This document shows, in pieces, positions 52,001-55,000 of a DNA stretch of 64,000 nucleotides (positions are counted from its first letter, which is position 1; each line of letters starts with the position of its first letter). Source of the DNA: Escherichia coli (GTDB taxonomy: Bacteria > Pseudomonadota > Gammaproteobacteria > Enterobacterales > Enterobacteriaceae); NCBI RefSeq assembly GCF_048403405.1, contig NZ_CP183131.1. One strand, 5' to 3'. A program made the position numbers.

Positions 52001-55000
52001 GCTTTGATCTACAACACGCTGACACCGTTCATACTCTGGAATGTGGGCGTTGATAGTATTCTGATTGATGGTTGTTTCGGCAGAACAATCCCCAAAGCCA
52101 CCTGCGATGAGGTCCATATCCTCATAGGTCTTTTTGCTTAGATTTAGTACAGGGTCATTACTGAAATCAGGGCGTGATCGATTAGAGGCATCGAGAAGAA
52201 CCTTGTATGCCGCACCAGAGATTGATGGATTAGCACTATTGGCATCACTCCACAGCGACCCTTTTGCATTATTCCCCACGCTGTCCATGTCATCGCCAGA
52301 GTCGTAAATGCCTTGCAGACCGCCCACATCAGGTTTATTGGCATCAGGGAAGTAATAACTATCAGGTTTATTGTTGGTCCCGCTCGTTCCGGGGAATAGA
52401 TCATTGACATTAATCTGACTCCCCCCGTTCATTTGGAATTGACCGTCTTTCAACGTCGGCATAGAGATTGTGCCATCTTGCACAGTCCCCGAGCTCGACT
52501 TGAATGAGTTTGAGAGGTTTTGTCCGAAAGCCTGGGCCTCTTTACCCACCGCTGTGATGTCCTGGTCTTGGCTACCGTTAGCGTAGGAATGTATCGGCAG
52601 CGCAGACATGGTTACTGTCAACAGCGAGGCCACAGCTTTCATAAAGTAATTATGACTTCGCATTGTGTTCTCCATTTCAACCTTCCCATGCTATCTGAGA
52701 AGACAAGGGCCACCTGTACGTGTAGTGGCCCTTTTGGGGCATAATCTAAAATGCCCGTGCAAATTCGTTAGGGTCTGCTCAATTGTTACAGCAATCATTC
52801 CATCGCCAGATGGTGTAAATAGGGTCTTGCCCAATTGCCGGTATAGTTCGCGCCAGACCCCACGTAAGAGTGGATTCGCCAATTACGTGAGATGAGTTTG
52901 TCTCTGGAACCGGATGCAATAGCGTGAATTTGTACTGCGTTTTGGGTAGTGTTGGGCTAATAACACCTCTACACATAGCCTCAGAACCCATTGTCTTCCA
53001 CGCTAACCCCCGGCGATGCAAAGCAGCCAGAACCCTTGTGCTAAGAAGACTGCTATCGCGGATAACACCTTTTCCACCATTCTGGTTGCCACTAAATGGA
53101 TACAGGGTGCCCCATGAACCAGCACACCAGAAAAGCTGTTTTAAAGGTTTTCCAGCGGTTGATGAGACAGCATCAGCAGTACACGCAGCCGCCGCAATTG
53201 GGTTTGCTACTGCCGCCGCCTCTGGATTGGTAAAAAAAGCGAGCTCATCATTGTTCCAGGTCGGGTCGAGCTCCGACATGTACATGATGTCGAGATCCAT
53301 ATACCCATCAGCATTACAGGTCTGCTTAATAAATAAATCGAGCATCACCAACAGAGGAAACGCATAGTAGTGATAGTGCATAAAAGAACCATCACCACCA
53401 TCCATGTCTCCCATGCCATGATGCCCTTGGTTAGTCCTATCAAACGGGAACCTGACACCATTCAAGACAGATGAGCAGCCAGGCACTCTCTGAAATTCAA
53501 CAAGCCGTGCTGGCTCCCACATAGAAGTGGTGACTCCAGGCCGAGGGACCCCTAGATTATCCTCGCACATACACAGAGGGTTGCTTACGGCTTCACTCGG
53601 GAATGATCCGCCTCCACCACTTATAGGAACCCCTGCTACTTTGATGGGAAAAATACAGCTCCAGCAGATGTCAGTAATCAGTTTTCCGCCGATTACTTCC
53701 GCATTCTGGCACCCAGGGTCAGCCGATACCGAACGAACCCAAAAGACCGCGCTAACGGCAATGACCCGTAGAATTTTTTGCATCATGGTAAGGCCTTTAC
53801 GTAATTCAAGTGTTTCTCCATGACAGCAGGCTTCCCGTGATAGAAACCTTGTTGCCATGACAGTCCAAGTAATTTGGCGCTCTCCCCCAATGGGAAGCTC
53901 TCCACCTGCTCAGCAATGAGCTGTATGCCTTTTCGGCGGCAGTGGAGGATGGCCGAGTAGTCTTCAAGCGACCGCAGTCTTCTCGCGTCAAACTTGCAAT
54001 AGTGCCAGTCATAACGACTCAGGCGCTCCAGCGAAGAGTTTTTGTCTCCATAGTCATCCAGCGCCAGCTCAACCCCTATTTCGGTAAGAGCCTCCCATCT
54101 CAATGCGAGAGAGGCATCCTGAATGCCCTCGGTAATCTCGATGACAAGCCGTGATGAGTGATTCTTAGCAATGTCGCGGACAACCCTCCACCACGCTTTG
54201 AAAATGACGTCTGATTGCAAAGTATGTTCAGAGACATTCAGAAAAAGAGCTGGGTACAGATCCAAGCAATAATGAAGGTTGTCCTGAATGAACCGTGCCA
54301 TCTCCATATCCACCAGCCCCCAATAAGGAGGTGATGACAGAGAGGATGGTGTAAGAACCCGGCCTTCGTCGTACCAACGAGCCAGTACCTCAGCAGCGAC
54401 AAACGAACCTGTGCCGACGTCTTTAATTGGTTGGAAAGCCGGGGCAAAAATCATTCACCGCCCTCCTCAGCAAGTTCGCGGACAACAAACTTCTTGCCTC
54501 TGGCAGTAATGACGCTCGGTGTGTGCTCCAGCTCGAACCGGGTAATCAGATCTGGCGTCAGCAGATATACCGGCGCGTCAAAGTTGTCGGTGACACTCTT
54601 GTAGGAATCCCAGCCTTTGTCTTTGTCGAACTCTGTGGCGATATAGGTAATCCGTTGTACGCCAGGTTCCTGCTTAATTTCAGGCAGCTTCTTGGCGAGC
54701 AGCTCCATTTGCTTTTTGTCCAGCGGGTCGAAAACTACGACCGCTTGGGTAAATGGCCGCGTTCCAGGCTTGCAAACTTCCTTCGGATCGCACAATGGGT
54801 TGATCACGTCACCCGCGTGAGCGAACACAGTGCCATCCGGAGTGCTGATGTCACTGGTGATCATGACGCTAGGGTCAATTTCTCGTGTTCGAGATTTTGG
54901 CGCTCTGGGCAGCTCATTGAAATTCTGCTTGGTCCAGAAGCGCTCTATAGCCTGTTTCTTCTTCTCTTCCCAGTCGATATTGGCAAGGCGTTTCTTGGCA

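Follow-up and report, generated by a model that had tools for sequence, protein, structure and literature searches.

The window analysed here, a stretch of 64,000 nucleotides of Escherichia coli DNA (contig NZ_CP183131.1), is the backbone of an IncC plasmid, and between the pilus-assembly genes traW and traU it carries a gene for a stand-alone EAL-domain protein on the minus strand (positions 53783..54454; 672 nt, 223 aa, ATG start, TGA stop). The product (WP_001337754.1) consists of a single domain without a signal peptide, and the gene corresponds to vcrx082 of plasmid pVCR94, the name used below. The initial annotation of this DNA had described a stand-alone gene with clear EAL motifs at these positions that overlaps traW at its start and traU at its stop, and both points were borne out by the open reading frame (ORF), the domain match, the motifs, the predicted fold and the sequence of the two junctions.

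Read on the minus strand, the traW stop codon (TGA, 54453..54451) and the vcrx082 start codon (ATG, 54454..54452) are merged in the tetranucleotide ATGA (54451..54454), and a GGAGG Shine-Dalgarno sequence lies within traW, 7 nt upstream of the vcrx082 ATG (54462..54466, minus). At the other end the minus strand reads ATGATGC, and the ATGATG at 53781..53786 combines the vcrx082 stop codon (TGA, 53785..53783) with the traU start, which is either the GenBank ATG at 53783..53781 or the ATG at 53786..53784. The upstream partner, traW (54451..55716, minus), is annotated as such and encodes a TrbC-TraW fusion of 421 aa with matches to the NCBIfam TraW and TrbC_Ftype models; the downstream partner, annotated as traU (52779..53783, minus; 334 aa from the annotated start), matches the NCBIfam TraU model with an E-value of 4.6e-75. 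The longest possible traU ORF (52779-53858) would begin at 53858 and so overlap vcrx082 by 75 nt. We rejected this start as an artefact of beginning the ORF at its first in-frame ATG, because the TraU profile aligns only from residue 29 and the GenBank start is M26 of that ORF. Translation from the annotated start at 53783 gives TraU a signal-peptide-like N terminus (MQKILRVIAVSAVFWVRSVSA).

Because vcrx082 overlaps both of its neighbours, co-expression with the pilus-assembly genes is expected, as had been proposed in the initial annotation, and the published AcaCD-activated operon dsbC-traC-079-trhF-traW-082-traU includes the gene (PMC4542580). Neither a foreign insertion nor a separate transcription unit was indicated, and both were ruled out: the GC content of vcrx082 (0.50-0.53) is like that of its flanks with no compositional break, and promoter-like and terminator-like sites are no commoner than expected by chance. 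Upstream of traW in the same operon, according to ORFs, annotation and the published operon map (PMC4542580), are trhF (55679..56209), vcrx079 (56206..56523) and traC (56538..58985), all on the minus strand. Downstream of traU lies traN (49865..52675, minus; ORF and annotation), for which a separate AcaCD-dependent promoter has been reported (PMC4542580). The 105-aa ORF vcrx079, located between traC and trhF, shares 4 nt with trhF, is conserved in place in every related locus that we examined and has no match in NCBIfam.

A 3.1-kb region spanning traU, vcrx082 and traW matched 842 plasmid records, 347 of them at an identity of at least 99%, and was 100% identical in many IncC records. The matching records that we inspected were typed as IncC, MOBH and MPF_F, and the hosts were Klebsiella, Escherichia, Salmonella, Providencia, Vibrio, Aeromonas and Shewanella. 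Existing annotations of the ORF read "EAL domain-containing protein" or "diguanylate phosphodiesterase"; the gene is named vcrx082 in the pVCR94 operon map (PMC4542580) and is listed as ORF080 of pAQU1 (PMC4036041). Since the window is IncC backbone, the gene is therefore not new, nor is its annotation: as vcrx082 or ORF080, it belongs to the backbone of a much-sequenced plasmid family and has been annotated for years in hundreds of plasmids. An arrangement of traW, EAL gene and traU identical to that of IncC, with a 100% identical TraU, is also found in Providencia rettgeri RB151 in a record titled complete chromosome (L027; NZ_CP017671.1, 1790005-1796172), which suggests that an IncC plasmid, whole or in part, is integrated in that chromosome.

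Predicted fold and active-site residues of the vcrx082 protein

The Pfam EAL domain (PF00563) covers residues 3-209 of the vcrx082 protein (E 1.2e-22; model positions 13-236 of 236). The Pfam scan returned nothing beyond this domain, and NCBIfam yielded only sub-threshold matches to the EAL portions of longer phosphodiesterases. The N-terminal residues, MIFAPAFQPI, form the first strand of the domain, and because the chain opens directly with this strand we conclude that the protein has no signal peptide. The motifs FQPI, EVLAR, NVS, EITE, DDYGDKNSS, KFD, AEQVE and QQGF follow along the chain. A modified TIM-barrel EAL fold is predicted with confidence by an AlphaFold2 model built on 25 orthologues (mean predicted local distance difference test score, 90.5; predicted template modelling score, 0.88), in which disorder is limited to the last 10 residues. 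When this model was compared with the PDB by Foldseek, all 50 of the best matches were EAL domains (E down to 1e-13), including TBD1265, MucR, RocR, PdeA, YahA, YkuI, LapD and FimX, with query template modelling (TM) scores of 0.64-0.79; the top matches scored 0.73-0.79.

We mapped the active-site residues from alignments of the vcrx082 protein to RocR and TBD1265. E22 and R26 of the ExLxR motif (here EVLAR) correspond to RocR E175 and R179, the Glu22 codon lying at 54389..54391 (minus); N73 corresponds to N233, E106 and E109 to E265 and E268, D133 and D134 to D295 and D296, K154 to K316, E182 and E185 to E352 and E355, and Q202 to Q372. None of the eleven RocR-signature residues varies among 25 orthologues with identities as low as 38%, and among 71 representatives of the family, clustered at 50% identity, each is retained in 66-71. 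Within the ExLxR motif, E22 is present in 70 of the 71 and R26 in every one; the residues taken as metal ligands (N73, E106, D133 and D134) are present in 69-70, and the glutamate that anchors loop 6 (RocR E268, here E109 of EITE) in 68. The catalytic lysine K154, the general-base glutamate E182 (at the EGVE position), E185 and Q202 are all kept in the family as well. The loss of metal-binding or catalytic residues that marks degenerate, binding-only EAL domains of the LapD, FimX and YdiV type was thus not seen. As all such residues are retained and conserved, vcrx082 should not be filed as a degenerate EAL gene on sequence grounds, and the homologues, in which the initial annotation had foreseen that a degenerate binding-only domain might come to light, point the other way.

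Loop 6 reads DDYGDKNSS (residues 133-141; 54032..54058, minus), to be compared with the canonical DFG(T/A)GYSS (PMC12943098). Across the family it takes the form DD[FY]G-x-x-x-[SA]-x, with D133, D134 and G136 invariant in the 25 orthologues. With intact catalytic residues and a divergent loop 6, the domain would be a "class II" EAL domain in the scheme of Rao et al. 2009. RocR, TBD1265 and PdeA (CC3396) have the same fold as vcrx082 (TM 0.73-0.76) and the same signature residues by position; however, their loops are canonical (DDFGAGYSS, DDFGTGYSS and DDFGTGFSS) and they have regulatory partner domains, whereas vcrx082 has no partner domain.

Like vcrx082, PdeH (YhjH) of E. coli and Salmonella is a single stand-alone EAL protein with no sensor domain and a non-canonical loop 6, and in our alignment the two proteins share Q8, E22, N73, E106, E109, D133, D134, K154, E182, E185 and Q202 (vcrx082 numbering). 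They are nevertheless only 27% identical and are not orthologues: pdeH is chromosomal, whereas vcrx082 sits inside a type IV secretion system (T4SS) operon, and the vcrx082 protein lacks the N-terminal extension of ~30 residues found in PdeH and has a shorter K154-E182 segment. The highest query TM-score (0.79) was obtained with YkuI of Bacillus subtilis, a comparison of folds. In YkuI, loop 6 is degenerate while the catalytic residues are retained, and a C-terminal PAS-like domain, absent from vcrx082, is thought to control activity.

A compact EAL family at the traW-traU junction

Orthologues occupy the same traW-traU junction in pRMH760, an IncC type 1 plasmid (97% amino acid identity to the EAL protein of the window), an IncA-typed plasmid (73%), an Aeromonas plasmid (65%), a pAQU-type Vibrio plasmid (39%) and metagenomic contigs (40-47%), and the gene is kept at this junction in IncC types 1 and 2 alike. 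The identity of the EAL protein broadly tracks that of TraW across loci. Among ten orthologous loci, the traW/EAL junction shows a 4-nt overlap in six and some overlap in eight, and the EAL and traU genes overlap by 1-38 nt in all ten. Pairwise ratios of nonsynonymous to synonymous substitution rates (dN/dS) were 0.12-0.18 for the EAL gene versus 0.05-0.15 for trhF, traW, traU and traN, while the dN of the EAL gene was 2-6 times that of traW and traU; the EAL gene is therefore constrained but fast-evolving. Between the window and pRMH760 (L011:4501-5172) it forms a locally more divergent patch, with a dS of 0.097, 3-5 times that of the flanking trhF, traW and traU (0.02-0.03), and an amino acid identity of 97.3% versus ~99% for the flanking genes, possibly as a result of recombination.

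When 1.84 billion representative proteins were searched with a profile (E<=1e-30), 71 clusters were obtained, nearly all of them stand-alone proteins with a length of 214-268 aa and a match beginning at profile position 1. In 10 of 13 sampled genomic contexts, including members down to an E-value of 1.7e-28, the gene directly follows a TrbC/TraW gene, and in those ten traU comes next wherever the contig reaches that far. What is new here is this compact stand-alone EAL family, located mostly at the traW-traU junction, with conserved signature residues and under purifying selection, and the result at the level of 71 clusters supports selection for catalysis over a chance passenger. An exclusive association with tra operons was ruled out by a free-standing sister subgroup on metagenomic contigs (P0071 and P0077; L020:174-1603 and L021:93-2239), in which a DUF3268 gene follows the EAL gene and, in L021, a PLD-like gene is also present. 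P0065, P0073 and P0085 probably belong to the same subgroup; the 986-bp contig of P0065 has no TraW gene upstream.

The initial annotation had called for a survey of this position in related elements. Using IncC TraU as query against one genome per GTDB species, we collected 80 loci and searched them with a hidden Markov model of the EAL family. At TraU identities of at least 69% there were 22 loci: 13 had the EAL ORF between traW and traU, five had traW abutting traU without it, and four, from Ca. Glomeribacter, had no adjacent traW, so that the gene was absent from 5 of the 18 informative loci. The 13 positive loci came from Providencia, Shewanella, Edwardsiella, Paraglaciecola, Alcanivorax, three Vibrio species, Citrobacter, Azomonas, Halomonas and a Rhodospirillaceae metagenome-assembled genome. 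None of the 58 loci with TraU below 60% identity carried the EAL ORF, while the gene is present in two metagenomic elements whose TraU identity is 50-59%. The earlier statement that such a gene is unusual for F-type tra operons therefore stands for the systems compared, namely SXT/R391, Rts1 and all 58 distant TraU loci; however, the gene is no oddity of the window but has long been annotated and is fixed in the backbone of IncC and IncA and of their relatives.

A candidate phosphodiesterase of the mating apparatus

The domain and its fold, the conserved signature residues, purifying selection, the place in the operon and family-wide synteny are shown by the results above, whereas the substrate, the catalytic activity and the physiological effect of the vcrx082 protein are inferred: judging from its sequence, it is somewhat probable that it is an active, metal-dependent phosphodiesterase of cyclic di-GMP (c-di-GMP) that is made together with the mating apparatus and lowers c-di-GMP in transfer-competent cells. 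As a cytoplasmic, compact, single-domain enzyme, it would hydrolyse c-di-GMP to pGpG with Mg2+ or Mn2+. Transcription would proceed from the AcaCD-activated dsbC promoter and translation would be coupled within traW-vcrx082-traU, and because of this AcaCD-driven operon and the translational coupling the protein would be present only in cells engaged in assembling the IncC mating apparatus. Levels of c-di-GMP would then fall in transfer-competent donors, and possibly in fresh transconjugants, which may shift the host from a matrix-producing sessile state to one that favours mating or cuts the cost of transfer, with the EAL protein acting as an accessory modulator rather than as a structural part of the T4SS. 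The suggestion in the initial annotation that c-di-GMP could be lowered during mating is thus plausible and has the best support among the readings, but that this would happen locally is pure conjecture. As for a partner cyclase, no GG[DE]EF motif was present in any ORF of at least 150 aa in the window.

Several points weigh against an active phosphodiesterase with this role. The loop 6 sequence departs from the canonical DFG(T/A)GYSS, to which an essential part in activity, in dimerisation and in the binding of substrate and cofactor has been ascribed (PMC12943098). Positions 137-139 of the loop vary freely in the 71-sequence alignment and are unconstrained in the family, and Pro43 stands in place of the acidic residue found in the alpha-2 "AEexGli" segment (RocR E198), at a position occupied by Pro or Tyr. 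A link from lower c-di-GMP to better conjugation is assumed. YkuI, despite intact catalytic residues, shows no activity in vitro, and we found no functional study of vcrx082, enzymatic or genetic, in the searchable full-text literature. The gene is also dispensable for related transfer systems. SXT/R391 integrative and conjugative elements lack it (PMC4542580), as does Rts1 (IncT; PMC10838148), although both have the same gene order as IncC, trhF-traW-traU-traN, and Rts1 also has a fused TrbC-TraW (PMC4542580, PMC10838148). In both, traW is followed directly by traU, and conjugation of Rts1 has been dissected without any EAL gene (PMC10838148).

Losses within close relatives of IncC count on the same side. 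In Photorhabdus caribbeanensis HG29 (scaffold_0013, L030:3408-3491), TraU is 94% identical to IncC TraU and the EAL gene is absent; this is one of the five survey loci without the gene. The 84-nt traW-traU spacer found there aligns in register to nt 19-62 of the EAL gene (30 of 43 positions identical, a score reached by 1 of 1000 shuffles), its end resembles the last bases before the traU start, and it looks like the scar of an internal deletion of the EAL gene. In clinical IncC plasmids, insertion sequences have landed in the region equivalent to window positions 53780-54460: ISKpn18 between the EAL gene and traU in CP144326.1 (L022), IS1B at the traW/EAL junction in NZ_KX832927.1 (L023) and ISEc52 inside the EAL gene in NZ_CP021956.1 (L024). 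Such insertions should be polar on traU, and these plasmids may therefore be impaired in transfer. A truncated 153-aa EAL product (P0012) represents 104 member sequences. The EAL gene is not present throughout related F-type/MOBH systems, as a core mating-pair formation (Mpf) gene would be; being clade-restricted, patchy and losable, it is therefore accessory and not core. Intact EAL ORFs were also seen in two decayed IncC-like regions, one in Xenorhabdus nematophila (HF952043.1, L009:4700-15900), where traC, traU and traN are fragmented, and one (L014:3700-6700) with a split traW and a frameshifted traU. This could reflect chance, the gene being short, or retention for the benefit of the host.

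The concern raised in the initial annotation, that the DDYGD sequence leaves activity uncertain, is legitimate but probably overstated, since the signature residues are conserved family-wide and loop 6 of PdeH deviates too. Departures in loop 6 need not abolish activity, because PdeH, an annotated c-di-GMP phosphodiesterase, has the loop DDFGTGMAN and lacks the arginine of the ExLxR motif. The same loop is, however, a reason to consider a c-di-GMP sensor or trigger-type EAL protein with little or no turnover, which by analogy with YkuI, LapD and FimX, or with the trigger enzymes PdeR and PdeL, might bind c-di-GMP and, through contacts with the T4SS or a regulator, gate pilus assembly or DNA transfer in response to the level of the second messenger. 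We consider this possible, though doubtful. A non-canonical and variable loop 6 would suit it, given that this loop is said to control dimerisation and the binding of substrate and cofactor (PMC12943098), and the overlapping junctions among assembly genes suggest stoichiometric co-production. Residues away from the active site that are invariant and particular to this family (W45, D49, W88, W120, W150, C153, C172 and H206) could form a partner surface, and the Foldseek matches to YkuI and LapD were about as good as those to active enzymes. In contrast, binding-only EAL receptors typically lose metal-binding or catalytic residues, whereas here all of them are kept in ~97% of a family that has diverged to ~30% identity, a retention that is hard to explain without catalysis. 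Contacts with the apparatus are also made less plausible by the envelope-like character of the neighbouring products (a signal peptidase, and TraU with its signal-peptide-like N terminus), the EAL protein having no signal peptide.

Catalysis on another nucleotide signal, such as pGpG, 3'3'-cGAMP or another cyclic oligonucleotide, which might blunt nucleotide-based immunity or signalling of the host at plasmid entry, appears improbable to us. The family does lie far from characterised EAL proteins (best PDB sequence E-value only 3e-8, identity 18-26%), its substrate-proximal loop 6 is unusual, and PDB entry 6ifq is titled "standalone versatile EAL protein". Yet EAL domains are generally specific for c-di-GMP, Q8 together with the metal and phosphate ligands makes up the standard c-di-GMP set, and the gene sits in a late, AcaCD-dependent Mpf operon and not in an early-entry region. 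PADLOC gave no match, the only PHROGs matches were weak and fell in the EAL part of long proteins with no known function, and we rejected a role in defence or anti-defence. Still less credible, to the point of being highly improbable, is a decaying or neutral passenger kept only since its removal would disturb the translational coupling of traU. The amino acid sequence evolves 2-6 times faster than those of TraW and TraU, the gene is lost or interrupted in some lineages, and frameshifted products occur (P0008 and P0019). However, the dN/dS of 0.12-0.18, the signature residues that are invariant at 30-40% identity and the full-length ORF in nearly all members are not what a passenger would show; a spacer kept just for coupling would not conserve an active site, and the Photorhabdus deletion shows that the spacer is removable. 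A non-functional relic was rejected as largely refuted by the dN/dS and the conservation of the active site.

Other mobile elements of the same wider group carry c-di-GMP genes. Diguanylate cyclases are carried by SXT/R391 elements, according to the passage of PMC4542580 that cites Bordeleau 2010, and IncX1 plasmids carry the EAL genes mrkJ-like and xeal, the latter described as degenerate (PMC5023117). These genes lie outside the transfer operons, as variable cargo or as regulators of fimbriae, whereas vcrx082 is a fixed backbone gene within the Mpf operon, and the SXT genes make c-di-GMP, in contrast to the degradation predicted for vcrx082. Going beyond an active phosphodiesterase in IncC, the traW-EAL-traU family might constitute a dedicated c-di-GMP module, enzyme or trigger-sensor, of a large F-type/MOBH clade that makes the mating apparatus, in its assembly or its activity, depend on c-di-GMP: c-di-GMP would be cleared where the apparatus is assembled, or transfer would be gated by whether the donor is sessile or motile. 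We offer this as a speculative proposal that is unlikely to hold in this general form; if it is true, no c-di-GMP component would have been shown before to belong integrally to a conjugative T4SS operon and to co-evolve with it.

In Enterobacterales, Vibrio, Aeromonas and Shewanella, IncC plasmids rank among the main vehicles of resistance genes, those for carbapenemases included, and the control of their transfer by AcaCD and AcaB is well mapped. The present results sharpen the question of why, in a large F-type/MOBH clade, what appears to be a catalytic EAL enzyme has been retained between two genes of pilus assembly and coupled to them. If the vcrx082 protein is an active phosphodiesterase that is switched on with the T4SS, plasmid transfer would be linked to the decision of the host between biofilm and motility. 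This would give the plasmid a route to rewire host behaviour exactly when it becomes transfer-competent, and it bears on the spread of plasmids in biofilms.

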